This document shows, piece by piece, positions 5,748 through 61,732 of a stretch of DNA of 64,000 bases. The notes below the pieces were generated by a model, which was given only the letters and a program-made list of their open reading frames with translations, ran no database searches and was not told the DNA's origin. The position numbers and the translations under genes are program-made. This DNA comes from an uncultured cyanobacterium. Lineage in GTDB: Bacteria; Cyanobacteriota; Cyanobacteriia; CAKZMO01. The stretch spans positions 296,144 through 360,143 of the forward strand of contig CAVRCJ010000003.1 of assembly GCA_963719515.1 (NCBI GenBank), in the 5' to 3' direction. Positions within the stretch are counted from its first letter, which is position 1, and each line of letters opens with the position of its first letter.

Positions 5748-7106
5748 TCACGTGCCGCGCCGCAGCCGCGCTACAAAAAAGCCATCCATCTGCTCGCGGT
5801 GGGGCCAAAGTTTCAGCCAGCCCTCGGGCGATCGCCATTGAGACTGCAGGTCATCCTCCACGCCCTGAAGCTCGATCGGATCGAGGGCCCAATCTTCTTG
5901 GCGCTCTAAAAACTGCTGCACCACCTGCTCATTTTCCATCGGGTGCAGGGTGCAGGTGGCGTAGACCATCACCCCGCCCGGTTTGACCCAAGCGGCGGCG
6001 CGGGACAGCAGCGCCTGCTGCAGCTGAGCGAGCCCTGCCACCGTCTCCGGCGTTTGCCGCCAGCGGGCGTCGGCGTGGCGGTGCAGCGTCCCTAGCCCTG
6101 AGCAGGGAGCGTCAATCAACACCCGGTCCACCGCCTCAAAGCTCAGCTCCCGCGCGTCCGCCACCTTGATCTGTAGTGACGTTAACCCCAAACGAGCCTG
6201 ATTGTCCTGCAGGCGCTCTAGCCGCTTGGCGCTGCGATCGCAGGCCCACACCACACCCGGACGGCCAGACGGACCTGAAGCTCCATCGCCCATCAGCTCT
6301 GCCGCGTGGGTGGCCTTACCGCCAGGGGCGGCGCAGGCATCGACGATGGTTTCTCCCGGCTGCGGGGCGAGGCAGTGGCCCACGAGCTGGGCGCTGCTGT
6401 CCTGAACGCTCCACCCCCCCGCCTCGAAGCCCGGCAGCGCGGGGACCCGCTGGGATGAGGTCAGGCGAATCGCCTGGGGCAAGGGCAAGAGCCTGTGGTC
6501 AACGCCAGCCGCTGATAGGGCCGCTGAGACGTCAGGACGGGTGGCTTTGAGGGAATTAATCCTTAAGTCGAGCGCTGGGGGTTGGTTGAACCAGGCGCAC
6601 AGCTGCGCCGTCTCTTCTAGGCCAACGGCGTCAGCCCACAGCGCCACGATCCAGTCGGGATAGCTGTGCTGCACCGCCAGTTTTGCCACGGGGTCGTCAG
6701 GCAGCACCAGCGGGTCGCCTTGGGCCTCTAGCCGCCCGTACTGCCGCAGCACCCCATTCACCAACCCCGACAGCCCGCGCAGACCGTTGCGCTTGGCCAA
6801 ATCAACGCTGGTGTTCACCGCCGCCGAGGCCGGGACGTGATTCAGGTATCGCAGCTGGTAGAGCCCCAGCCGCAGAATGAGCTGCAGCTTCACGGGGTGG
6901 CGCGATCGCTTGCGAGAGAGCTGGTCGATGAGGGCGTCGAGGGTGCGGCGACGGCGGGTGACCCCGTAGACGAGTTCGGTGACAAACCGGCGATCGCGCC
7001 CATCAAGGGATGTTTGGCCGAGGGTAGAGTCTAGCGCTGCGTCCGAGAATACGTCCCGCTCAATCTGCGCTAGGGCGTCTAAGGCGAGCTGTCGTGCGTT
7101 TGGCAT
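5748..7106 (-). CDS. rsmB: 16S rRNA (cytosine967-C5)-methyltransferase RsmB/Sun
   Basis: N-terminal NusB-like region plus SAM-MTase motifs DACAAPGGK, DAPCSGLG and a catalytic ATCT...P region. Confidence 0.85.
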   Translation of the reverse strand: MPNARQLALDALAQIERDVFSDAALDSTLGQTSLDGRDRRFVTELVYGVTRRRRTLDALIDQLSRKRSRHPVKLQLILRLGLYQLRYLNHVPASAAVNTSVDLAKRNGLRGLSGLVNGVLRQYGRLEAQGDPLVLPDDPVAKLAVQHSYPDWIVALWADAVGLEETAQLCAWFNQPPALDLRINSLKATRPDVSAALSAAGVDHRLLPLPQAIRLTSSQRVPALPGFEAGGWSVQDSSAQLVGHCLAPQPGETIVDACAAPGGKATHAAELMGDGASGPSGRPGVVWACDRSAKRLERLQDNQARLGLTSLQIKVADARELSFEAVDRVLIDAPCSGLGTLHRHADARWRQTPETVAGLAQLQQALLSRAAAWVKPGGVMVYATCTLHPMENEQVVQQFLERQEDWALDPIELQGVEDDLQSQWRSPEGWLKLWPHREQMDGFFVARLRRGT

Positions 7107-7226
7107 TCCACTCCGTCGATGACAGGCTGCAGGATTTGCCTAGACGATCTGCGCCACGAGGGCTACTCCCCATAGGTACAGCTTTATCGCTATGCTAGAG
7201 AAGATCCGTGCAAAATATGCAGCCGT

Positions 7227-7811
7227 ATGATAGTAACAGAGCGCCAGCGAATCATGGCTTGGCTCACTGAAAACTTACCCAAACCTCGATTATCCCACGT
7301 GATGCGGGTGGAGCAGATGTCGGTAGAGCTTGCCGACTGCCATGGCCTCAACGTGGACAAAGCCGCCGCTGCGGGGCTGCTGCACGACACCGCCAAGTAC
7401 TTTAAATCTGACCGGCTGCTGGCGATGGCGCGGGCCGAAGGGCTCAAGCTAGACGACACATTTTGTGATAATCCCCGGCTGCTGCACGCCGACGTGGGGG
7501 CGATTGTGGCGCGAGACGAGTTTGGCGTTACCGACACCGACATCCTGCAGGCGATCGCCAACCATACTCTGGGTCAGCCCAACATGGACGGCCTCAGCTG
7601 CGTTGTGTTTCTAGCCGACGGCCTCGAACCCGGTCGGGGCCACAGCTCAGAGCTCAACCAAATGCGTCAGGTGAGCTACCAAGACCTCCACACCGCCGTC
7701 TGGATGAGCTGTGACTACACCATCCGTCAGCTGCTTGAGGCCAAGAAGCCCATTCACCCGCGAGCGATCGCCACTCGTAACTGGTTTTTAAAAAGCGCTA
7801 AGACAAGCTAA
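7227..7811 (+). CDS. yqeK: HD-domain hydrolase, YqeK family (bis(5'-nucleosyl)-tetraphosphatase-like)
   Basis: HD motif (LLHD), ~190 aa, and it sits immediately upstream of rsfS as in the conserved nadD-yqeK-rsfS arrangement. Confidence 0.8.
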   Translation: MIVTERQRIMAWLTENLPKPRLSHVMRVEQMSVELADCHGLNVDKAAAAGLLHDTAKYFKSDRLLAMARAEGLKLDDTFCDNPRLLHADVGAIVARDEFGVTDTDILQAIANHTLGQPNMDGLSCVVFLADGLEPGRGHSSELNQMRQVSYQDLHTAVWMSCDYTIRQLLEAKKPIHPRAIATRNWFLKSAKTS

Positions 7812-7910
7812 GACAAAAGGCGGCTTCCGTTAACCCTCGGTACAATGCAATTAAGCCAAAACTGCTCGCTGTATAATCCCATTCGCCCGAACAGGAGAAT
7901 CAAGTTCTGA

Positions 7911-8330
7911 ATGATTAATCGCTCTAACGCTAACCGAACCTTTGATGACGCGTCCTCAATCGGCGACCCCACAAGCGCAGATGAGACTCTCCAGGTTGCC
8001 CTCGATATTGTCAACGCCGCCGACGATCGCAAAGCCGTCGACATTTCGGTTCTAGACGTGTCGGATGTGTCCTACCTCGCTGACTACTTCATCGTCATGA
8101 CGGGACTCTCCAACGTTCAGGTTAGGGCGATCGCCCGTTCCGTTCAACAGGCCACCGAGGAGCACTGGGGGCGATCGCCCCAGCGGGTGGAGGGCGTTAC
8201 CGACGGCAACTGGATTTTGCTCGACTACGGCGATATCATCGTCCATGTCTTTATGCCCCACGAGCGCGAATACTACAACCTAGAGGCATTTTGGGGCCAC
8301 GCCCGCCGCGTCGATCGCGCTGCCTCTTAG
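7911..8330 (+). CDS. rsfS: Ribosome silencing factor RsfS (Iojap)
   Basis: Conserved Iojap core (DISVLDVSDVSYLADYFIVMTG...WILLDYGDIIVHVF). Confidence 0.9.
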   Translation: MINRSNANRTFDDASSIGDPTSADETLQVALDIVNAADDRKAVDISVLDVSDVSYLADYFIVMTGLSNVQVRAIARSVQQATEEHWGRSPQRVEGVTDGNWILLDYGDIIVHVFMPHEREYYNLEAFWGHARRVDRAAS

Positions 8331-51184: not shown

Positions 51185-51389
51185 AGTGCAGCGTTAGCGC
51201 CACGGCGCTAGCCAACACCATCGAGGACAGGCTATCACAACCCGCGAGCAGCAGGCTCTGGTAGCTGAGCAGGCAAACGGCTAGGGCAACCCCGGCAGGA
51301 AAAGTCAACGACTCGGCCATCGTATCAGCGACGTCGGCCACATACTCTAAAAACTCGAGCAGTCGAAGAAATCTGTGAAGTATTGCCAT
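51162..51389 (-). CDS. Small hypothetical membrane protein
   Basis: 75-aa ORF with one or two hydrophobic helices, co-directional in the heme cluster; weak. Confidence 0.25.
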   Translation of the reverse strand: MAILHRFLRLLEFLEYVADVADTMAESLTFPAGVALAVCLLSYQSLLLAGCDSLSSMVLASAVALTLHCGLNRPI

Positions 51390-51425
51390 AAGATCTAGCC
51401 ATTTGAGAGAAAGGGCAAAGGGTCT

Positions 51426-51926
51426 CTAAAGAAGGTCAGTCATCCGACTCAGCAAGATTTGCTGGGGAACTCGACCCACAAAGCTGTCGGCAACGGTGTG
51501 GTTTGAATCTAGCAGCGTCAGGTGAGGAACGCCGCTCACCTTGAACTGCGCAATCTGCTGCCGCCACTGCGGATCATCGATGTCGAGCATGACAAAGTTG
51601 ACCTGATTTTCCACCTGATGGTGAATATCCTGCAGCGCTGGTGCTATGGCCTGACAGGTGGTGCACCAGTCAGCGTAGAACTCGATTAGGGTCGGTTTTG
51701 GGCTAGCCATGGCCAGCTCGTAGGGCATGGCCGCTGCGGCAGTTTCCCTGAGCGCTATTAGCCCTGACACCGAGGACAGGCTTTGGGCGGAAGTGCCGGG
51801 GCGCGTCAGCAACAGGGTGGCGATCGCAAAGAGGCCTACCAAGGCAGCTGAGATTAGGCCGGCTTTGTTTGTATTAAGTGCCATGGGTTCAATGGACGCC
51901 GTACTTAAAATGGGTCGTTGAGTCAA
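51426..51926 (-). CDS. Membrane-anchored thioredoxin-like protein (TxlA/TlpA-like)
   Basis: N-terminal TM helix; thioredoxin fold with WCTTC active site. Confidence 0.8.
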   Translation of the reverse strand: MTQRPILSTASIEPMALNTNKAGLISAALVGLFAIATLLLTRPGTSAQSLSSVSGLIALRETAAAAMPYELAMASPKPTLIEFYADWCTTCQAIAPALQDIHHQVENQVNFVMLDIDDPQWRQQIAQFKVSGVPHLTLLDSNHTVADSFVGRVPQQILLSRMTDLL

Positions 51927-52416
51927 TCAGCTCGCGAAACGAGGGACTGACCTCTCCGTAGAGATCTAGCCATTCGTAAAAGGTCAGCTCTCCTTTGAGG
52001 TGGGCTTCGGGGTTATGCGCTCCTTCTATCATGATGCTGCTGATTAGCTGGTAGGCCTGCAGCCAGGCCTCCGCCAATTCTGGGGTCCATCCCTCGCCCA
52101 AATAATCCTTTAGCGCCTGCAGCAATGCTTGACCCACCATGGGATAGTGATCCTTTTCGGTTCCTTTAGTGACGTGATGGGCTCCTAGCCCCTGCAGTGC
52201 CTGAGATAGGGCGTGGGTGTTGTGTAGGTTCTCGACGATTAGGGCGAGAGAGGCCACGAGCTTTTTTTGCTGTAGCTCAGGGCTAACATCGGCAAACATC
52301 GGCTTCAGCTCAGGGTTGTTCTCAAACAGATGACCGTAAAAGCTGCCAGAGAAGGCGATCGCGTTGGGTTTAACTTTCTCGAAGCTGTTTTCAATCAGCG
52401 CTAGGGTATCAGGCAT
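51889..52416 (-). CDS. Single-domain globin
   Basis: From ATG 52416 (MPDTLALIENSFEKVK...) the ~175-aa product has a globin fold signature (FYGHLF...P.F, proximal-His region ALQGLGAHHVTKG); the longer ORF extension upstream is non-coding. Confidence 0.8.
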   Translation of the reverse strand: MPDTLALIENSFEKVKPNAIAFSGSFYGHLFENNPELKPMFADVSPELQQKKLVASLALIVENLHNTHALSQALQGLGAHHVTKGTEKDHYPMVGQALLQALKDYLGEGWTPELAEAWLQAYQLISSIMIEGAHNPEAHLKGELTFYEWLDLYGEVSPSFRELIDSTTHFKYGVH

Positions 52417-52556
52417 GGAGGATGATTTAAAGTTTGTTGAGCGACCGCAGTAGGTCCAAGGGTGAATTTTAGAGGAGTCGTAGGGACACCGCATGCGGTG
52501 TCTCCATATCGTATAGATGCCCATCCAAGGATTGGATACAGGCCCCGATGGAAAGA

Positions 52557-53276
52557 TTACTGATAGTAATAAGCCAAAGCAATGTGGAATATCAGCATCA
52601 CGGCGAACATGCAGACGAAAAAAATATGGCTCACCAGCCAAAGCGATCGCAGCCTCCGAATCAGAGGGCCTTTGGTGAGCGGTACCGGGCTCCAGGGCAG
52701 CTTGCCAAAGTAGCTGCGGGTGGACTCTAAAATGCCGGTTTCAGCGACCACCCCTACCAGCGCAGTCAAGGTCACGGCAAAGAACACCCACAGCAGCGCT
52801 GCATTAAAGTTAAGGCCGTTGGAGCCCAGGGTGTGGACCAGCACCATGGCCACCAGCGCTACGCCCAGGAAGATATGGACGCTGCGCCACAGCTGCATTG
52901 ATCCCGGCAGCTTGAGGCGGCCAATCCAGCTGCGGCTGCGCTTGCGGATGCTGAGCATGACCTCCAGCAGCACAAAGCCCAGCGCTGCGTAGCCGGTGCT
53001 CTGCTTGTATAGCTCTCCGCGAACAAACTGGTGCAAATCTACGGACTTTTCCCGTAGCCAGTCGAGGTAGAGGGTACTAAAGGCGAAGGGCAACAGCAGC
53101 AGCGCCGTCAACAGGGTTAGGCCAATAAGTATCTTGAGGCTGGGCTGAATACCCCTACGGGCTGCTTTTGCCTTTAGCTGTGGATTAATTTCAGCCCCCA
53201 CAGCGCTACCGGGAGCGGACGGTTCTAGCGCCGAGGTCTGGGGATTGAACGGAGAGGGGGAGTGAGGAGTGCTCAT
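52557..53276 (-). CDS. Hypothetical polytopic membrane protein
   Basis: 239 aa; Pro/Ser-rich N-terminus then ~5 TM helices with conserved His in helices (possible heme b ligands; speculative). Confidence 0.4.
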   Translation of the reverse strand: MSTPHSPSPFNPQTSALEPSAPGSAVGAEINPQLKAKAARRGIQPSLKILIGLTLLTALLLLPFAFSTLYLDWLREKSVDLHQFVRGELYKQSTGYAALGFVLLEVMLSIRKRSRSWIGRLKLPGSMQLWRSVHIFLGVALVAMVLVHTLGSNGLNFNAALLWVFFAVTLTALVGVVAETGILESTRSYFGKLPWSPVPLTKGPLIRRLRSLWLVSHIFFVCMFAVMLIFHIALAYYYQ

Positions 53277-53407
53277 GAAAATTAAGAAGGGGTCGGCTGA
53301 ACGCGTAGCCTGCGCGAGAGTTTCTAGCTGAGCTGCCGAGAGGGCGATCGGACATGTTTAGCGGCTTTGGAGAAGAGGCAATATGTCTTGGTCTTACCCC
53401 CCTCAGT

Positions 53408-53456
53408 CCCCCCTTGGTAAGGGGGGAAGCGTAATTCTCCCCCTTACCAAGGGGGA
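53408..53456. repeat. Long perfect hairpin/palindrome (CCCCCTTGGTAAGGGGG ... CCCCCTTACCAAGGGGG)
   Basis: 17-bp perfect complementary arms separated by 13 nt; each arm is also a quasi-palindrome; lies in the 265-bp gap between two minus-strand genes. Confidence 0.5.
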
Positions 53457-53541
53457 GTTAGAGGGGGTCTTCCGAGGTGCTAAGCACATGCGGGCGATCG
53501 CCCTCCCGGCAGGAACTACCGATGGCCTGTGATTTCGGCCA

Positions 53542-54225
53542 TTAAGCGCCCTCTAGGGGAATATTGATCACAACGCCGCCCATCACTTCATCCATCTCGA
53601 ACATCTTGTCGGGGTAGCGCTCTAGGTGGACGGGGTGGGTATTGTGGCAGGTCACGCAGGCCTCAGCGACGGCCTTGTCGGGATACATGGCGGAGAAGTA
53701 GGTCTGGCCGCCGATTTCCTGGTATTCCTTAACGGATTCGCCCGTGTCGATCATCGTTTGGACGGCAGCTTCCTCAAACTCGCCTTTGGGGGCGTGGCTG
53801 TCGTTGAGGTACCAAGGGGAAATCAGGTTGTAGGTGAAGTAGCCCGACTCATTGGCAATCTCAGAGCCGAGGCGGAACATCTGCGCCGGGAGGGGAATGC
53901 CGTCGGCCTGCTGCCAGGTCTCGGTGGACTCAACCTCAAGCACGCCCGCATCTTTGGCCTTGCCCTCTAGGGTCTTAACTCGGTTGACTACGTGCTTAGT
54001 GTAGGCGGTGCGGTCAGCCGCCAAGACGGTGTGGATGTAGTCGGCCACTAGCTCAGGGGCGACGCCAGCGGAGGCCTCAGTGGTAGCGGTGCCGCCGCCG
54101 CCGCCGCTACAGGAGATCGCCGTGACGGCAACGGCCAAGATGATGGCAATGAACGCCACCGTTCGGGTGCGGATAGCACTGATCCAGTTCTCTAGCATTG
54201 TCATGGTTGTGTCCTTAGGGTTCAA
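53542..54225 (-). CDS. Lipoprotein with C-terminal CxxCH heme-c site, probable DUF3365 (Tll0287-like) domain
   Basis: Lipobox AISCSGGGGG; single CVTCHNTHP motif near the C-terminus as in DUF3365 heme-c PAS-like proteins. Confidence 0.5.
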   Translation of the reverse strand: MNPKDTTMTMLENWISAIRTRTVAFIAIILAVAVTAISCSGGGGGTATTEASAGVAPELVADYIHTVLAADRTAYTKHVVNRVKTLEGKAKDAGVLEVESTETWQQADGIPLPAQMFRLGSEIANESGYFTYNLISPWYLNDSHAPKGEFEEAAVQTMIDTGESVKEYQEIGGQTYFSAMYPDKAVAEACVTCHNTHPVHLERYPDKMFEMDEVMGGVVINIPLEGA

Positions 54226-54333
54226 TACGTGCGTTAGATGCGCTGCGAGAGCGTTTAACGAGGCTTCCAGAATACAAAACGGAGAAGCCCCGAGAGCGAA
54301 AAGTTCGTCTGAGCGAACGCGGGATTTGACGGT

Positions 54334-55143
54334 CTAGTCGCTGCTCCCTTCGTCACCTTGTCCGACCCGCCGCTCTTCCAGGGCACGCACTAGGTCAAAG
54401 GTTTCTAGGGAGAGGGTAGGCGGCTCATCGAAGTTGGCCTCCACCAGGTCGTCGTCAAAAATACTGTTGTAGCTATACTCCACGCCGTGGCAGTTCATGC
54501 ACACCTCTCCCACCATGCGATCGCGGGGCAGCAGGGTATAGGTATTGTTGTGGTTCACCAGGGTCACAGTCTCGCCACCTTCCACCTCATGGCGCGGCAG
54601 GTGGCAGGTAGCGCAGCTTACCGCACTGCCGGAGGGACGCGGTAGCGCTAGGTCGGCGGCGAACAGCTGGGCGTGCTGGGAGTTTTCGTAGTTGAGGGAG
54701 TGGGTGTCGTTGTGACAGGTGAGGCAGGAGTCGACGGCGGCCTGAACGGTGTTGACTGAGTGGGCGTCGTGGCAAGTGCTGCAGGTCATCTGCATGTCGT
54801 GGGCGACGGTCTTCATCGGCAGCCGCGCCATGGCGGGCCTTAGGGGCGACTCATCTTCCAGCAAGCGAATGCCGTGCTTCCCCAGCAGGAAGGTATCCAC
54901 CGCCTGCTCGTGGCAGGACTGGCAGCTTTCGTAGGTGGGGTTGGCGACAAACGCCTGGGTTTCTTCGTCTTGGTGGCAGCTAGAGCAGTTGATGTCGTTG
55001 AGGGCGTGGGCGCTGGTTTCCCAGAGCTGGGTGGTTTCCTTGACCAGAGCCTGGTCGACATCGCCCCAGGCTGGCGCGGCCCAGCCAAGCAGCAGCGCCA
55101 GGGCCAGTAGCCAAGACATCACAGACTTCCTATTCAGCGTCAT
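54334..55143 (-). CDS. Periplasmic hexaheme c-type cytochrome
   Basis: Signal peptide; six CxxCH motifs (CSSCH, CQSCH, CSTCH, CLTCH, CATCH, CMNCH) in 269 aa. Confidence 0.8.
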   Translation of the reverse strand: MTLNRKSVMSWLLALALLLGWAAPAWGDVDQALVKETTQLWETSAHALNDINCSSCHQDEETQAFVANPTYESCQSCHEQAVDTFLLGKHGIRLLEDESPLRPAMARLPMKTVAHDMQMTCSTCHDAHSVNTVQAAVDSCLTCHNDTHSLNYENSQHAQLFAADLALPRPSGSAVSCATCHLPRHEVEGGETVTLVNHNNTYTLLPRDRMVGEVCMNCHGVEYSYNSIFDDDLVEANFDEPPTLSLETFDLVRALEERRVGQGDEGSSD

Positions 55144-55817
55144 GACTTACCCCCCAGAAACGCCTTACCCAAGTCCGCTGCTGGGGCCGATTTCAGCTCT
55201 GTCGTCACCACTCGTTCTGGCACGACCTGCACCGGCAGCATGGGGGGCTGGTCGAGGTTTTTCCTCAGGAACCCTGTAGAAATTGTGCGGTGGTCGTGGT
55301 AGTTGTGGCACCCGGCGGTCCAGCAGCCGTCTGGCGTAAACCCGTCGTGGCTTTTGAGGTCGCCCGCGGCGATGCCTTCGTGACAGGCCATGCAGAGGTC
55401 AGGCTGCAGGTGAACGCCGCGACCAAACATATGCACGTGCTCGTTGTGGCAAGTGGTGCAGGTGAGGGCCTCAATCTTGGCCAGCTCCCCTGCCCAGCGC
55501 GGGTCTCGAAACTTTTGAGCCCCGTGAACATCCTCGGCTAGCTCGGCCTCGTGGCAGCGCATGCAGGTGTCGTTGCTGACGGGCTTAAACCCTTCGTGGC
55601 AAGAGGCGCAGGAGCCTTCAATAAGGTAGTGGCCTACGGAGGTCTCCCCGGGCAGAAACGCCTGCTTGTTGTCTAGGGCAAATGCCGCCGAAAACCAGCC
55701 CACCAGAAGAATGCAGGCGATCGCGATCGCCGTCCTCAGGCTGATAAGCCGACTTATACCGCTAGCTTGCGATCGCTGCCGCTTGGGTGGCCTATTAGGT
55801 CTACCTCGAGATGCCAT
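55140..55817 (-). CDS. Membrane-anchored tetraheme c-type cytochrome, NapC/NirT/NrfH-like
   Basis: N-terminal TM helix then CASCH, CMRCH, CTTCH, CMACH plus an atypical CWTAGCH; size and layout match the NapC/NrfH quinol dehydrogenase family; 4-bp overlap with the downstream hexaheme gene. Confidence 0.7.
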   Translation of the reverse strand: MASRGRPNRPPKRQRSQASGISRLISLRTAIAIACILLVGWFSAAFALDNKQAFLPGETSVGHYLIEGSCASCHEGFKPVSNDTCMRCHEAELAEDVHGAQKFRDPRWAGELAKIEALTCTTCHNEHVHMFGRGVHLQPDLCMACHEGIAAGDLKSHDGFTPDGCWTAGCHNYHDHRTISTGFLRKNLDQPPMLPVQVVPERVVTTELKSAPAADLGKAFLGGKS

Positions 55818-55857
55818 GACTCTAGGACGTTCCTCCCAATGAAATTAAAGCGGTGGG

Positions 55858-56486
55858 CTAAAGCAGCAGCAGAATGATGAGTAAAACTGCGCCACCACCA
55901 ATTACCCCCCCCAGCAGCGGACCAGGCTTGAGGCCGTCTTCAGCGGTTGGGGCTGGTGCTTCAGAAGCAACGGGCTGGGCGACGGGCTCCGCCACTGGCT
56001 CCAGCTGCACAGACTCAGGAGAATAGTCAGCGCCCTCTAGCATCACCTCAGTGATCAACCCGTAGGCGTCAACCCAAGCCTGCTTGACCTCCGGCGTCCA
56101 GTCTTCCTTGAGGTATTGCTCAAAGGTTTTGAGGAGGCTGTTGCCCACCAGGGGATAATGATCCGGCAGCGCGCCATACTTGACGTGGCGAGCCCCCAAG
56201 CCTTTGAGGGCACCGGTCAATTCGCCGGGTTGACGCAGGTTCTCGACCACAAGACCAAAGAAGCCAAAAGCATCTCGCTCTGCTTGGCCATGTTGGTATG
56301 CGCAAATAGCGGCTTGGCTGCCGGATAGTCCGTAAACAGATTGTCGTAGAAGCTTGTCGCAAATTCATCGGCGTGGGACTTTACTTTCTCAAAGCTCTGC
56401 TCCAGCATGGCGACTTTTAGGCCGGTCGCCTTATCCACCTCGTTGACATCCACGGCGAGGTCAGATTCTGGCGGCTCAAGCGTCAC
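55858..56486 (-). pseudogene. Globin domain with C-terminal tail-anchor TM helix, interrupted by a 1-bp frameshift (second domain of a tandem di-globin)
   Basis: N-half (56217..56486) and C-half (55858..56250) are in different frames; a single missing A/T in the homopolymer at ~56255 restores ...LLASFGLVVENLRQ...; ends ...GGVIGGGAVLLIILLLL*. Confidence 0.6.
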
Positions 56487-56930
56487 CTCTTCTGCGGCTG
56501 TAGTCGGCCCCTTCTAGCATCATCTCGGTAATTACACCGTAGGCGTCCATCCAGGCCTGCTTTGTCTCAGGGGTCCAATCAGTCCAAGGTATTGGTCAAA
56601 GGTTTTAAGGAGGAGTTACCGACCAAAGGATAGTGGGCTGGTAGCGCGCCGTACTTAACGTGGCGAGCCCCTAGCCCCTCAAGGGCGCCAGTCAGCTCGC
56701 CAGGGTGGCGTAGGTTCTCGACCACAAGACCGAAAGACGCCAAAAGCTTTTTGCTCTGCTTATCACATCGGTTGCGCAAACAGCGGTTGTGCCGCTGGAT
56801 AGTCTGCGAACAAGTTCTCGTAGAAGCTTTCGCAAAGTCATTGGCATGGGGCTTTACTTTTTCGAAGCTTCTCTCCAGCAGCTCGACCTTTAGCGCCGAA
56901 TCTTTGTTAATGATTTCAACGTTATGAAGC
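56487..56930 (-). pseudogene. Degraded upstream globin domain (tandem duplicate, ~85% nt identity to 55990-56486), at least 4 frameshifts and no start codon
   Basis: DNA aligns with the downstream copy; translation fragments ...SFEKVKPHANDF / SFYENLFADYPAAQPLFAQ / DKQSKKLLASFGLVVENLRHPGELTGALEGLGARHVKYGALP / DWTPETKQAWMDAYGVITEMMLEGADYS lie in shifting frames. Confidence 0.55.
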
Positions 56931-57486
56931 CATTGGTATGCCTGTCCTGCAGTAGTGCAAGTTGAATTTTATAGTGAGTGAAGGCGCAAAGGGGCATCTT
57001 CTCGATTCAATACATCGGTTGGCCAATCGCATCAGCTACTCGTAATGATTTCCTGATATCGACGCGCTTGAAGAGACCTTAGGAAATCAGTTAGTCCTCG
57101 ACTGCCAATCTTGACTACCAAATGCCTGGTAAGACGACATCTATGAAGACAGCCAAGCAAGCTCGATCCAGTATTGCTTCAGCGGGGCACTCGAAAGCTT
57201 TTAGCTCGTCGTTACATGGCAGCAAAAGCTGCGCGACGCAAACCTGACGCATAGAGAACCGATAACCTGCACGATTTTGTCAAACAAAGCACATTTCGAG
57301 AATTTAAATTTCCGAATTTTGCATCGCTTTATGCGTTTTTCGCATTGCAAGTCCGCCAGCGCGATCGCGTGAAACTGTTATGCAAATTGCGTACTGAATT
57401 AAAACCACATTTTGCATAAGAATGTGCTTGGCTTTGTATCAAATACTGCAAATATTTCTAAGCGAAAACCCATAAAAGTTGAATAG

Positions 57487-59349
57487 ATGAACTCTGACCA
57501 CTCTGTAGAAATATCCATGCCGTCTAAGGCCGTTCGTTTTTTAGGCTCAATTCGCTTAGCGGTGCCGCTGATTGGCGGCGATCGCACTCATATTAATTGG
57601 AGCCACGTTTTACGAGTCCAGCGTCGGCTCTGCCACCGTTCAGCGCGAAATCTACAAAAGCGCCTGGTTTGGCGGGCTGATGTTTTTGCTGGCGGTCAAC
57701 TTAGGGGTCTCTACCCTCAGCCGCTATCCCTGGCGAGGCGCGCGCAAAGTTGGATTTGCGATCACCCACTGTGGCCTAATCATCATCATTGCCGGGTCTG
57801 CCGCCGTCATTCACCTCAGCACCGAGGGCATGCTGCTGGTGCGTACCGACAGCGGCCCCGGGAACCAAATCCGCGTGGAGGGTGACCTATTGGAGGTGGT
57901 ATCGCCAGACCAAAAGCGCCAGCAAACCGATATTTTTGTCAAGCCGGACGGCTCAGTCTACCCCGCTCAGTTTGCCGGACTCTCGATGCTGGGCTACAGC
58001 GACAGCGCCATCAAAACCGTGAGCTTCGTTGAGGGGGATAGCGATAAAGACCCAGCCGCGAAAATTTGGCGGTCAAGCTGCAGCTGCGCAGCGATCGCAT
58101 GGGTCAGACCCTAGAGCGGTGGCTGGCGACGGCTCCCATGGGCTATGGCCAAATGGACATCGGTCCGGCGCATTTGGAGCTACGGCAGGCGATGGATGAG
58201 GGCGTACTCGCGCAGTTTCTCAGCCCCCCGTCGTCTCAGTCCGCCTACGGAACGCTGACGCTGGGCGATCGCACCGTCGATATCGAAAAAGTGCTGGGCC
58301 GCTCGGTTTCCCTGAAAAAAGGGGTGAGCGCTGAAATCGTCGACGTCTGGCCCGACTTTCGGCTGACGGCGGGCAAACCGACCTCGGCCTCCAAAGCCTT
58401 CCGTAACCCAGCGGTGCAGGTGAATGTGGCCCAAGGTGATATCCAAGAGCGCTGGTTTGTGTTCGCAAAGCCGGGCTTGCCTCCGGTACGCTCCGGAAAT
58501 TCCATCGCCCTAGAGGCCACCTACACCGCGCCGGAGACCACGGCGTCCGATTACTTCCGCGTTGTGGCCGCTCCTGGGGGGCAGCTGTTTTACGCGGCGC
58601 TCTCGTCCAAAGGCTTCAAGTCGGGTGAGCTGCACTCTGGTGAAGCGATCGCTCCTGGCTGGGCCGACTTTCGAATCTCGCTGGCCGAGCGTCTAGATCA
58701 CGCTCAGGTGCAGCGGCAGGTAGTGCCCATGGCCCCAGTTGCCCCCGGCGCAGCCAGTAGCGAGGGATTTCCGGCCCTGCAGGTGGCTGCTGAGGGACGG
58801 AAGGCCTGGCTCCCCTGGGGCGAGCCCATGGCCCTCGATACGCCCGGCGGCGAATACTTCGCGGCCTTTACGCCCAAGCTGCTACAGCTTCCTTTCTACG
58901 TGAAGCTCGATGACTTTATCGTGGAGCGCAACGAAGGTAGCGAATCGGTGGCCATGTGGACCAGCAACATCACCCTGTTTGACCCCACGACCGACACCGC
59001 CGCCCACCGCTCGGTGTGGATGAACCACCCCACCTGGTTTCGCGGCTGGAAGCTGGCCCAGGCATCCTGGAATCCTGGCGACCTGAAGCAGTCTACCCTG
59101 CAGCTGAAGCGGGAGCCCTGGTGGGTAACGGCGCTAACCTGGATCGGGTCGCTGATGGTGGTGACTGGCGTGGGCACCATGTTCTACGGTCCGGCGCTGG
59201 TGAAGCGATCGCGGGGCCGCAAACCCGCACCCCAGCCCGGAACCCCGTCGCCCGAAACACCTTCGCCCGAAACACCTTCGGGACAGGCCACGGAGGACGC
59301 GATCGCCGAACCGGCACCACAATTGGTTGGGGCGCAAACCCATCCGTGA
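57487..59349 (+). pseudogene. ccs1: Cytochrome c biogenesis protein Ccs1/ResB/CcsB, disrupted by two 1-bp indels
   Basis: Three consecutive ORFs in different frames (57487.., 57572..58114, 58066..59349) together reconstruct a ResB-like protein; frameshifts at ~57575 (extra G in GGCGGCG) and ~58085 (missing G in TTTGGCGG). Confidence 0.65.
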
Positions 59350-59384
59350 ACCGCCCCGCCGTAAACGAACAATTTTGGACAACT

Positions 59385-61118
59385 ATGAACGGCTCTAACA
59401 TCATTAAATTCTTGGTCGGTCTGTGTTTGGGCTGCGTCCTCCTACTGCTGCCCCTCAGCCAGTTCCAGCCCGACGGCCTTGAAAGCCTGCGCACCCTGGC
59501 CGTGCAGCTTGACGGGCGCAAAAAGCCCCTCGACACCGTTGCCAAAGAAACGATCGCTAAGATACATGGCTCGACGACCTATCGTCACGCGGACGGTGAA
59601 GCGATCGCCAAAGAGGGCTACCTCACCGCCTACCTCGGCATGTGGTTCAACACCCGCAACTGGAACGAAGAGCCCGTGGTGCTGGTCAGCTATCGACCCC
59701 TCAAAGAGGTGGCTGGCCTAGATTTAGAGCGTAAGCACTTCACCTTCCAGGAGCTGATGACCAACCGGGAGCTAGGAGCGATCGTCGGGCAGGCTCACCA
59801 AAAGGAAGCCGAAGAGATAGACCTCAGCCGCGATGAGCGGGAGGCACTCTCCATCGAAGGTCGCCTGAACCTGCTGTACCAGGCCGTGGGAGATAAAAGC
59901 CTGCCCATTGTCCCGCATCCCAGCGAAATTAAGGGCAAATGGGCCGGTCTCAGCAGCTCGCCGCAGCTCTACGCACCAGAGGCGATCGCCCCGGTGATGG
60001 CCCAGTTTGCCGTGATGCAGCGGACCTTACTGAGCGGTGGCCTCACCCACCTGCCCATGGTGGGGCCGCTGGCGGATAACCTCAAGGAAAGCCTGCAGCA
60101 GCTCAGCCCTGCGATTTATCCCACCGACGTGACGCTGGCGCGAGAGGTGCATTTCAACCACTTTCACCCCTTTGCCAAGACCTGGTGGCTATACGGCCTG
60201 GCATTCATCGCCATGCTCGCCGCCCTATGGATAAAGCCCTGGAATCTCTACTGGAGCGCCATCGGCCTGTTCACGGCGGGCATTGCGGTACAGAGCTACG
60301 GCTTCTTTCTGCGCATGCAGATTGCCGGTCGGCCCCCGGTCACCAACATGTATGAATCTGTAGTGTGGGTGGGCTTTGGCATCGCGGCGATCGCCCTGGC
60401 GTTTGAGCTCACCTCCCGCAGTCGCTACTACCTGCTGGCGGCGGCTCCCCTGGCCATGGTCTGCCTCATCTTGGCCGACAGCCTGCCCGCCGTCCTCGAT
60501 CCCAGCATCTCGCCCCTGGTGCCGGTGCTGCGGGACAATTTTTGGCTCAGCATCCACGTGCCCACCATCGCCCTCAGCTACGCCAGCTTTGCCCTAGCCC
60601 TGGGGTTGGGACATGTCGCCCTGGGCAACTATCTATTTGCCCCGCAAGAGAAAAAGCGCATCAAAACCCTGTCTCAGCTCAACTACCGGGTGCTGCAGGT
60701 GGGGGTGCTGCTGCTGACGGCGGGCATTATCCTAGGCGGCATCTGGGCTCACTTCTCCTGGGGCCGCTTCTGGGGCTGGGATCCGAAGGAGACCTGGGCA
60801 CTGATTGCCCTGCTCTGCTACCTGGCTCCGCTCCACAGCCGGCTGACGGGCTGGATGGGGGACTTTGGCATCAACGTGGCTAGCGTGGTGTCGTTTAACG
60901 CGGTGCTGATGGCTTGGTACGGGGTGAATTTTGTCCTGGGTACGGGATTGCACAGCTACGGCTTTGGCACCGGAGGGTCGGCGCTGGTGATTGCCGGGGT
61001 GGTGGGTCTGGACCTGCTGTTTGTGGCGATCGCGGCGGTGCGGCATTACGGCTGGTTCAAGGGTCTGGGTGAATCCACGTCTGCGGTGCCTCCCGATGGC
61101 ATCATTGTGGGAGATTAG
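59385..61118 (+). CDS. ccsA: Cytochrome c-type biogenesis protein CcsA/ResC with long N-terminal soluble extension
   Basis: C-terminal polytopic domain with the Trp-rich WWD motif (WGRFWGWDPKETWAL) and conserved His residues; start chosen at ATG 59385 (MNGSNIIKFLVGL...). Confidence 0.8.
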   Translation: MNGSNIIKFLVGLCLGCVLLLLPLSQFQPDGLESLRTLAVQLDGRKKPLDTVAKETIAKIHGSTTYRHADGEAIAKEGYLTAYLGMWFNTRNWNEEPVVLVSYRPLKEVAGLDLERKHFTFQELMTNRELGAIVGQAHQKEAEEIDLSRDEREALSIEGRLNLLYQAVGDKSLPIVPHPSEIKGKWAGLSSSPQLYAPEAIAPVMAQFAVMQRTLLSGGLTHLPMVGPLADNLKESLQQLSPAIYPTDVTLAREVHFNHFHPFAKTWWLYGLAFIAMLAALWIKPWNLYWSAIGLFTAGIAVQSYGFFLRMQIAGRPPVTNMYESVVWVGFGIAAIALAFELTSRSRYYLLAAAPLAMVCLILADSLPAVLDPSISPLVPVLRDNFWLSIHVPTIALSYASFALALGLGHVALGNYLFAPQEKKRIKTLSQLNYRVLQVGVLLLTAGIILGGIWAHFSWGRFWGWDPKETWALIALLCYLAPLHSRLTGWMGDFGINVASVVSFNAVLMAWYGVNFVLGTGLHSYGFGTGGSALVIAGVVGLDLLFVAIAAVRHYGWFKGLGESTSAVPPDGIIVGD

Positions 61119-61129
61119 GCTGTATCGGC

Positions 61130-61243
61130 ATACTGTAGGTTGGGTTGAATTTATGAAACCCAACGTCACCATTGATATTGTTGGGTTACGCTAGCGCTTT
61201 TTAGCGAAGCCATGCCCGAAGGGCTATACCCAACCTACGATTT
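61130..61243 (+). repeat. Nested inverted repeats built on GTTGGGTT/AACCCAAC, ending in a T-run
   Basis: Outer arms CGTAGGTTGGGT (61133) and ACCCAACCTACG (61227), inner arms AACCCAAC (61157) and GTTGGGTT (61181), plus GCTAGCGCTTTTTAGCG; followed by ATTTTTGA; lies between ccsA and the Rieske gene. Confidence 0.45.
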
Positions 61244-61732
61244 TTGAGGAATGAACCTATGAAACGACGCGAATTTATGAACTGGGTGGGCTTTGGGGCC
61301 CTGGCCGCCTCCCTCCCCGTGGCGATCGCCGCCTGTCAGCCTGATACCGCCTCGACCGACAGTGCCCCAACCGACAGCGCCCCTGCTGAAGATGAGACTG
61401 CATCCGCAGAACTGGACAGCACCCCTGACGCTGAGGGCTTCTCCGCCATCGGCACGGTTGCCGAGCTAGACGAGGGCAGCATTTCCAGCAAGAACTTCCA
61501 GGGCGAGCAGGTCGCCGTCGTTCGCGCAGCCGAAGGCGTTGTGGCGGTCAATACCCTCTGCACCCACCAAGGCTGTACCGTCAAATGGGACGGTGAAGCG
61601 TTTGCCTGCCCCTGCCACGGCTCCAACTTCTTCCCTGACGGCAGCGTTGCCACCGGCCCAGCATCAGAGCCGCTGCCGACCTATGAGGCTAAGATTGACG
61701 GCGATCGCGTCTTGGTCAAGGTGGCGGCGTAG
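61244..61732 (+). CDS. Tat-exported Rieske [2Fe-2S] protein
   Basis: Twin-arginine signal MKRREFMNWVGFGALAA; Rieske boxes CTHQGC and CPCHGS. Confidence 0.85.
   Translation: MRNEPMKRREFMNWVGFGALAASLPVAIAACQPDTASTDSAPTDSAPAEDETASAELDSTPDAEGFSAIGTVAELDEGSISSKNFQGEQVAVVRAAEGVVAVNTLCTHQGCTVKWDGEAFACPCHGSNFFPDGSVATGPASEPLPTYEAKIDGDRVLVKVAA

Follow-up and report, generated by a model that had tools for sequence, protein, structure and literature searches.

Membrane-anchored cytochromes c of the NapC/NirT family (NapC, NrfH and CymA) have a single N-terminal transmembrane (TM) helix and, on the outer face of the membrane, a multiheme domain with exactly four CxxCH motifs; in nrfH-nrfA the anchor gene is coupled to that of a periplasmic multiheme catalytic partner. 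In MsrPQ-Fre and NOX-type systems, an NAD(P)H flavoprotein feeds two stacked b-hemes across the membrane and, through them, a periplasmic acceptor. For cyanobacteria, a review reported that BLAST found no MtrCAB or OmcS homologs in their genomes (PMC6503001); multiheme cytochromes are regarded as absent from model cyanobacteria, and their route of electrons to the outside is still open. Here we describe a pair of overlapping multiheme cytochrome c genes, A and B, in a 64,000-nucleotide stretch of DNA, hereafter the window, from an uncultured cyanobacterium (GenBank assembly GCA_963719515.1, contig CAVRCJ010000003.1, positions 296,144 to 360,143 of the forward strand; coordinates below are those of the window). 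To judge from their alignments, the two products are the halves of a split undecaheme cytochrome, which outside the cyanobacteria is a single fused protein. We consider it likely that A and B form a non-catalytic wire in a conserved redox module leading from a DUF4405-like membrane protein through A-B to a Tll0287-like protein, with nitric oxide (NO) or nitrogen oxides as its most likely theme.

An earlier note on this DNA, made from the sequence alone, had described a translationally coupled pair, consisting of a NapC/NrfH-like tetraheme and a periplasmic hexaheme cytochrome. Both open reading frames are present where it placed them, but on the minus strand:

Gene A, 55817..55140, minus strand: 225 amino acids; N-terminally membrane-anchored pentaheme cytochrome c, the N-terminal half of the split undecaheme
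Gene B, 55143..54334, minus strand: 269 amino acids; secreted hexaheme cytochrome c, the C-terminal half of the split undecaheme

The coupling of a membrane-anchored to a soluble multiheme protein is borne out by a 4-bp ATGA overlap at 55143..55140, where gene A ends with GGT AAG TCA TGA and gene B opens with ATG ACG CTG; a ribosome-binding site, GGGAGGA, lies upstream of gene A. The A protein contains a single hydrophobic helix at residues ~20-50, which is also kept in fused relatives and which the AlphaFold2 (AF2) model places at 18-47 with a predicted local distance difference test score (pLDDT) above 90. A conserved juxtamembrane motif, FLPGETSxGH, follows directly after it. The heme motifs of A are CASCH, CMRCH, CTTCH and CMACH (C70xxCH, C85xxCH, C120xxCH and C142xxCH), and then CWTAGCH, a CX4CH motif (C165x4CH). 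The B protein has a signal-peptide-like N-terminus, with residues 7-26 followed by AWG|D, and six CxxCH motifs, at C53, C74, C121, C140, C177 and C215. All five motifs of A, CX4CH included, and all six of B are invariant in 24 orthologs each, and the 11 are likewise invariant in 120 distant fused relatives, a conservation on which the earlier note had made its reading depend. Against a chance rate of ~0.001 CxxCH per protein of such size (our own estimate from residue frequencies), the heme motifs of both proteins far exceed expectation. Since the CX4CH motif is invariant, gene A encodes a pentaheme protein and not a tetraheme with one odd motif; the count of six hemes for B given earlier stands, and that of four for A does not.

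Compared with the closest relative, a metagenome-assembled genome of Elainellaceae (locus L004), A and B show in-frame indels only, and the ratios of nonsynonymous to synonymous substitution (dN/dS) are 0.067 for A and 0.104 for B, low values which indicate that both are functional genes. Existing family models say little about them. The generic model PF14537 (‘cytochrome c3-like’), which carries no functional information, scores 29.9 bits for A and 43 bits for B (gathering threshold 25 bits), and the Pfam and NCBIfam matches of A are to generic multiheme models only (Cytochrom_c3_2, c7, MtrC domain II/IV). None of the curated NCBIfam models gives a name to A, B or ten fused relatives. Membership in the DmsE/MtrA decaheme family was rejected, TIGR03508 scoring B at 42.7 bits and A at 19 bits against a curated cut-off of 192.

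An exhaustive profile search of 1.8 billion representatives returned 379 relatives, with E-values of the fused proteins reaching 1e-72. The full-length relatives outside the cyanobacterial orthologs are mostly 400-500 amino acids long, and the B-like part forms their C-terminal half. The whole layout, found in proteins of about 430-480 amino acids, comprises an N-terminal TM helix, the motif FLPGxTSxGH, four CxxCH, one CX4CH (or a fifth CxxCH) and six CxxCH, which amounts to 11 hemes. A second search, started from an alignment of 30 fused proteins, yielded at least 1720 clusters. The sources include Burkholderiales, Gammaproteobacteria, Methylomirabilota, Candidatus Entotheonella and many metagenomes, and the best existing annotation is ‘cytochrome c3 family protein’. 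A chimera of A and mature B is collinear with 120 fused proteins over its whole length at 35-39% identity, and 11 additional histidines are invariant in this alignment besides the 11 heme sites. Comparison of the A and B profiles with hhalign gave 97.2% probability (E 4e-11) over 128 columns containing the first four heme sites. On these alignments, A and B are paralogous modules as well as the two parts of one undecaheme. Such a split and fusion pair is a natural case for studying how long heme wires arise from modules like those of hydroxylamine oxidoreductase (HAO). The published undecahemes UetJ, OccP (922 amino acids) and UndA are, by their descriptions, set apart from this family by other sizes and porin-cytochrome contexts. 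Two relatives, P0270 and P0257, stand out by their N-termini, one as an 831-residue fusion of a major facilitator superfamily transporter with the undecaheme and the other by an IS630 transposase-like start; each may be an artefact of gene calling or assembly, or a real fusion.

The additional histidines that are invariant among the 24 orthologs are H63, H98, H127, H129, H157, H174 and H176 in A, five of which (H63, H98, H127, H157 and H174) are also invariant in the 120 fused relatives, and H46, H90, H128, H148, H157 and H198 in B. Because there is one candidate distal histidine per heme, we infer that all 11 hemes are probably six-coordinate, low-spin and bis-His ligated. The AF2 model built on the chimera alignment has a pLDDT of 80.6 and a predicted template modelling score of 0.81, with the B part mostly above 90 and the A part at 50-90. 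A model of B alone from the 24 close orthologs reached a pLDDT of only 44.5 and was discarded.

The nearest structural kin of B is the HAO and octaheme superfamily, to which c554 and NrfA also belong. The B profile matches the HAO-like octaheme protein Kustc0458 of Kuenenia (PDB 6h5l) at E 3e-7, with five heme motifs in register; NrfA and the octaheme nitrite reductases give only weak matches. A Foldseek search of the AF2 model against the PDB gave Brocadia HAO (6t5e) as the only meaningful match (E 1.3e-3, prob 1.0, 238 columns). The 6h5l chain contains an extra motif, CDMCH, the fourth, just before the one aligned with the third heme of B, which has a gap there. In the HAO family this fourth motif marks the catalytic heme. 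B thus keeps the heme core that serves electron transfer in HAO but not the catalytic heme, and the same goes for A as its paralog. Collinear motif order, spacing and fold core are shared by B and, more weakly, by A; unlike HAO, B has six hemes in ~240 residues instead of eight in ~500, a conserved candidate distal histidine for each of them, and no trimerisation or cross-link region. As the catalytic heme-4 motif is absent, a catalytic HAO-like role was rejected and B is read as a wire and not as an enzyme. The possibility raised in the earlier note that the hexaheme protein belongs to a self-contained catalytic family is therefore not supported, since the resemblance to HAO is confined to the electron-transfer hemes.

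The genetic context of the fused protein was examined in 83 non-cyanobacterial loci; the counts that follow refer to loci with enough flanking DNA, unless given out of 83. A flavoprotein of 660 amino acids is encoded directly upstream of the fused undecaheme gene in 49 of 56 loci, and a Tll0287-like protein directly downstream in 61 of 66. A globin is found in 34 of 50, a mono-heme cytochrome c in 23/83, and nitrate or nitrite assimilation genes (NasT, NrtA/NasS-like, NasA, NirB) in 29/83; in 15 loci the gene just before that of the flavoprotein encodes the ANTAR regulator NasT. The flavoprotein matches NirB residues 1-464 (E 3e-106), with flavin adenine dinucleotide (FAD)/NAD(P)H, Rubredoxin_C-type and BFD [2Fe-2S] domains, but its C-terminus is a five-helix membrane domain in place of the sirohaem domain. 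This membrane domain is homologous to a DUF4405-like open reading frame in the window. The fusion is seen, for example, at positions 5996-7993 of locus L084 and 5893-7884 of locus L085, and at about 70 further loci; literature searches found no description of a NirB-type flavoprotein fused to a DUF4405-like membrane domain.

Four histidines of the membrane domain (H134/H148 and H217/H231, 14 residues apart on each of two helices) are kept by all 75 cyanobacterial and all 54 fused sequences compared. Experiments have demonstrated heme b binding by DUF4405, which is structurally MsrQ/PepSY-like and is related to ferric-reductase-type and ferrosome cytochromes (PMC11334425), and the DUF4405-like neighbour of A and B is likely to be the membrane electron-entry component. 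From the flavoprotein fusion, the four conserved histidines and the heme-b binding of DUF4405, the ancestral chain would run from NAD(P)H through FAD, [2Fe-2S], two b-hemes across the membrane and eleven c-hemes to the heme c of the Tll0287-like protein. The arrangement recalls MsrPQ-Fre and NOX-type systems in its NAD(P)H flavoprotein, its four invariant histidines on two helices, suited to two stacked b-hemes, and its periplasmic acceptor; unlike in those systems, the acceptor is an 11-heme c chain with an sCache_heme protein and not a molybdoenzyme or flavinylated protein, and in the cyanobacterial version the flavoprotein is missing. A globin and a flavoprotein inside nas operons are a known NO-detoxification arrangement, as in narK-bjgb-flp-nasC of Bradyrhizobium (PMC4724949). 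The non-cyanobacterial relatives share with it the single-domain globin and the NAD(P)H flavoprotein in NasT-controlled nitrate-assimilation operons, and differ by the added membrane domain, undecaheme and periplasmic sCache_heme protein; the cyanobacterial cluster differs further in that it does not adjoin nitrogen-assimilation genes.

In cyanobacteria the split genes are part of a larger cluster. One genome per species was scanned, and relatives were found in 294 species, the best 80 of which are all cyanobacteria. Carriers include Leptolyngbya, Halomicronema, Nodosilinea, Phormidesmis, Geitlerinema, Limnothrix, Prochlorothrix, Coleofasciculus, Xenococcaceae, Adonisia, PCC 7375, and Moorena and Lyngbya confervoides, from two genera reported to make extracellular superoxide. 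The carriers, about 290 cyanobacterial species, are for the most part filamentous and live in the sea or on the bottom, Leptolyngbya, Moorena, Halomicronema and Geitlerinema being examples. When the cluster proteins of the window were compared by tblastn with 82 cyanobacterial loci, gene A was found in 80, the Tll0287-like protein in 80, globin in 78, the DUF4405-like protein in 77, thioredoxin in 76, ResB in 59-62, CcsA in 57, Rieske in 51 and ChaN in 23, the lower counts reflecting contig ends. The gene order is fixed, with Rieske, CcsA and ResB on one strand and globin, A, B, Tll0287-like, DUF4405, (globin), thioredoxin and (ChaN) on the opposite one. The flavoprotein is absent from all 82 loci and has no homolog in the window, and there are almost no nitrogen-assimilation genes in the cyanobacterial loci. 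In the window the cluster spans ~50261-61732, between queA and mutL, and contains, in addition to A and B:

50261..51184, minus strand: ChaN-like lipoprotein, last in the cluster and a variable accessory to it (Cofac_haem_bdg, PF04187, E 2e-70)
51426..51926, minus strand: membrane-anchored thioredoxin-like protein (Pfam Thioredoxin, E 3.7e-18; weak ResA/DsbE/TlpA-like matches; TM helix 20-43)
51889..52641, minus strand: second globin, single-domain and intact, between the DUF4405-like and thioredoxin genes (Pfam Globin, E 6e-15; probable start near 52416)
52557..53276, minus strand: DUF4405-like integral membrane protein, predicted di-heme-b carrier (weak Pfam DUF4405; H134/H148 and H217/H231 on two helices)
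53542..54225, minus strand: Tll0287-like/DUF3365 (sCache_heme) mono-heme c protein (PF11845, E 2.8e-19; lipoprotein-type signal; probable start 54204)
55858..56950, minus strand: tandem di-globin with C-terminal TM tail, directly upstream of gene A; a pseudogene here, intact with 344 amino acids in L004
57517..59349, plus strand: ResB/CcsB-like cytochrome c synthesis protein, a cluster-specific paralog (Pfam ResB; two frameshifts compared with L004)
59385..61118, plus strand: CcsA-like heme-handling cytochrome c synthase, a cluster-specific paralog, intact (Pfam Cytochrom_C_asm, E 8e-33; dN/dS 0.10)
61259..61732, plus strand: exported Rieske [2Fe-2S] lipoprotein (Pfam Rieske; twin-arginine motif RREF and lipobox AIAAC, MKRREFMNWVGFGALAASLPVAIAAC; sub-threshold PetC matches)

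The window thus has the features of the module, with the Tll0287-like gene directly downstream of gene B, the four-His membrane domain, and one intact globin besides the pseudogene. A, B, the Tll0287-like and DUF4405-like proteins and CcsA are under purifying selection, and all five are intact. The adjacent DUF3365 protein and the globins had been suggested in the earlier note as possible partners, and their frequencies inside and outside the cyanobacteria strongly support this. Its statement that no classical terminal reductase (NrfA, NapA, HAO) is encoded nearby also holds for the cluster, and no reductase co-occurs in the 165 loci (82 cyanobacterial and 83 other).

Of all partners of the undecaheme, the Tll0287-like protein is the best conserved. 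Its family, PF11845, has been reclassified as ‘sCache_heme’ in a preprint in which receptor-fused members have NO-sensor properties and stand-alone members show Cys/His ligation and redox-type behaviour, gene context not being discussed; the proteins were also found to produce superoxide with O2 in vitro (bioRxiv 10.64898/2026.02.01.703092). Like Tll0287 of Thermosynechococcus, a photosystem II-associated Cys/His heme c, the proteins of the cluster belong to PF11845 and have an invariant CxxCH. Unlike it and the stand-alone sCache_heme proteins, they are always paired with the undecaheme, and their alignment contains no conserved cysteine beyond CxxCH and the lipobox, so that the axial ligation would differ from that of Tll0287. 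M208 (‘VMGG’) and H190 (‘CHNxH’) are invariant and H58 is nearly so, which makes M208 and H190 candidate distal ligands. A phmmer search of the PDB with the Tll0287-like protein gave nothing, and its profile reaches 5b82 only marginally (E 0.47).

Taken together, the data suggest that membrane-tethered A, with five hemes, and soluble B, with six, would associate on the outer face of the membrane, in the periplasm or possibly the thylakoid lumen, as one eleven-heme chain. The DUF4405-like protein would carry electrons across the membrane through two stacked b-hemes, and the A-B chain would relay them to the Tll0287-like protein as the likely distal end, with the globins on the cytoplasmic side; physical contacts among these proteins are presumed from the conserved context. 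In other phyla, with thousands of sequences from proteobacteria, Methylomirabilota and Entotheonella, the driver of the module would be the NirB-type NAD(P)H/FAD/[2Fe-2S] reductase that carries the DUF4405 domain. By analogy with these NAD(P)H-fused forms and with MsrQ/NOX-type systems, the flow is most likely from cytoplasm to periplasm. The cyanobacterial version would have lost the flavoprotein and gained an exported Rieske protein and its own ResB, CcsA and thioredoxin for heme attachment; ferredoxin, plastoquinol or a tethered globin are candidate donors. The thioredoxin-like protein is probably the thiol-reducing component of cytochrome c maturation, and the private set might, speculatively, serve the CX4CH site, targeting or a specific membrane. 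Wolinella, for comparison, has specialised CcsA isoforms. A link to NO or nitrogen oxides is suggested, with uncertainty, by the embedding in nas operons, the Hmp-type globins (the best NCBIfam match of the second globin is the globin domain of the NO-inducible flavohemoprotein Hmp), the Bjgb-Flp precedent and the NO binding of sCache_heme relatives.

Several points weigh against this interpretation. Both the direction and the theme are extrapolated from other phyla, the cyanobacterial clusters having neither the flavoprotein (0/82) nor nitrogen-assimilation neighbours. The bis-His ligation is deduced from a count of invariant histidines, and the A part of the AF2 model has the lower confidence. 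To judge from their alignment, the Tll0287-like proteins of the cluster do not have the Cys ligand of Tll0287, and the stand-alone sCache_heme protein of P. putida binds neither NO nor O2 strongly (preprint 10.64898/2026.02.01.703092). Finally, two genes of the cluster are interrupted by indels in the sequence of this genome; partial decay of the system is possible, as is a dependence on the second globin and housekeeping CcsB. The di-globin has about seven single-base indels compared with L004. Sequencing error was considered as their cause, but the ~7 indels fall within ~700 bp and none occur in 6 kb of neighbouring genes; this clustering argues for real decay. ResB contains a +1 insertion at ~57574 and a -1 deletion at ~58058, giving three reading-frame pieces, which could reflect real decay, an alternative start or an error in sequencing. 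What has happened in this genome may be a remodelling of the system and not its loss.

The functional form of the proposal in the earlier note, that A, alone or with the DUF4405-like protein, oxidises (plasto)quinol as NapC, NrfH and CymA do while B passes electrons to a periplasmic reductase encoded elsewhere, seems to us unlikely. Its attraction lies in the topology of A, which is that of NapC/NrfH, with the conserved juxtamembrane motif directly after the helix. The nrfH-nrfA pair resembles the present genes also in that the anchor gene is coupled to one for a periplasmic multiheme protein. One fused relative weakly matches the last two NrfH heme motifs (32 bits, cut-off 134), some cytochrome-b561/MsrQ-type proteins use quinol, and the absence of an NAD(P)H flavoprotein from the cyanobacterial clusters makes a quinol donor plausible there. 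The sequences speak otherwise. Searched against Pfam and NCBIfam, A matches neither PF03264 (Cytochrom_NNT) at E<=0.1 nor, significantly, TIGR03153, and even at E<=10 none of the 24 A orthologs matches PF03264. A profile search of all PDB sequences, NrfH among them, returned nothing for A; the hhalign alignment with E. coli NapC is restricted to one heme motif of 11 residues; and the Foldseek search of the AF2 model against the PDB, in which the A part has a pLDDT of 50-90, did not return NrfH. A has five heme sites, one of them CX4CH, where the NapC/NirT family has exactly four CxxCH, is a paralog of its own downstream partner, and comes without a catalytic partner gene; nor was a reductase found among the 165 loci. 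The conserved flavoprotein-DUF4405 fusion points to NAD(P)H, and not quinol, as the ancestral donor. The labels ‘NapC/NrfH-like’ and ‘standard quinol-oxidising entry module’ are thus not supported.

Inward flow, which we judge improbable, would have the Tll0287-like protein, the Rieske protein or both oxidise a periplasmic donor (Fe(II), reduced sulfur, hydroxylamine or NO) and A-B and DUF4405 deliver the electrons to the membrane or to a tethered cytoplasmic globin. The exported Rieske protein and the tail-anchored di-globin of a cyanobacterial cluster without a cytoplasmic reductase would fit, as would the HAO/c554-like heme core of B and the life of the hosts as benthic mat formers exposed to sulfide and anoxia; but in most family members the module is joined to an NAD(P)H oxidoreductase, as is typical where electrons are exported outward, none of the catalytic sites known for such donors was found, and all 11 hemes appear six-coordinate. 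The least credible alternative, a periplasmic or cell-surface ferric reductase or NOX-like superoxide generator for reductive iron uptake, can draw on the ChaN-like iron/heme-uptake lipoprotein adjoining 23/82 cyanobacterial loci, the kinship of DUF4405 to ferric-reductase-type and ferrosome cytochromes (PMC11334425), the superoxide formed by sCache_heme with O2 in vitro (preprint 10.64898/2026.02.01.703092) and the occurrence of the cluster in Moorena and Lyngbya, but ChaN lies outside the core of the cluster, neither iron transporters nor a Fur-type context were observed, and the globins and the embedding in nas operons are left unexplained.

With the split undecaheme read as a wire for outward transfer, a bolder proposal may be put forward tentatively, as a possibility we would not yet favour: that cyanobacteria have a previously unrecognised trans-membrane electron-export pathway, from DUF4405 through the 11-heme wire to sCache_heme and/or Rieske, with its own cytochrome c maturation. 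If true, this would be a native route by which some cyanobacteria move electrons out of the cytoplasm, and it could account for the reduction of NO or nitrogen oxides in the periplasm, for extracellular superoxide or iron reduction, or for the unexplained exoelectrogenic activity of cyanobacteria; the NAD(P)H-driven version of heterotrophs would then add a new periplasmic arm to the NO defence linked to nitrate assimilation. Multiheme wires, MsrQ-like cytochromes b and globins are each known kinds of component, and what appears to be undescribed is their combination, together with the split undecaheme and its distribution among cyanobacteria; full-text literature searches found no description of the cluster or of multiheme cytochromes native to cyanobacteria. 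The module also places three families with no annotated function (the undecaheme, DUF4405 and stand-alone DUF3365/sCache_heme) in a functional context, and in organisms that are amenable to genetics.

Some minor observations concern the remaining genes. The CcsA and ResB of the cluster are divergent paralogs, and CcsA scores 165 bits with TIGR03144, below the cut-off of 187.6. The Rieske paralog is conserved alongside the cluster in cyanobacteria only. In relatives, the upstream globin consists of two globin domains in tandem and a TM tail at the C-terminus, and the second globin occurs at its position in a subset of loci only, among them L014, L017, L018, L023, L037 and L040. The ChaN-like lipoprotein, of heme/iron-uptake type, provides a possible but weak link to iron. 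The other genes of the window are housekeeping ones (topoisomerase, PEP synthase-like, acetyl-CoA synthetase, tricorn protease, MscS, QueA, MutL and others) and give no functional clue. Between the Tll0287-like and DUF4405-like genes, the spacer contains a 143-bp insertion at ~53350-53491 that is absent from L004. Inside it, CCCCCTTGGTAAGGGGGAG ... CCCCCCTTACCAAGGGGGG make up a long, imperfect palindrome with GCGATCGCCC repeats on its flanks, and the insertion resembles a small mobile or repeat element.

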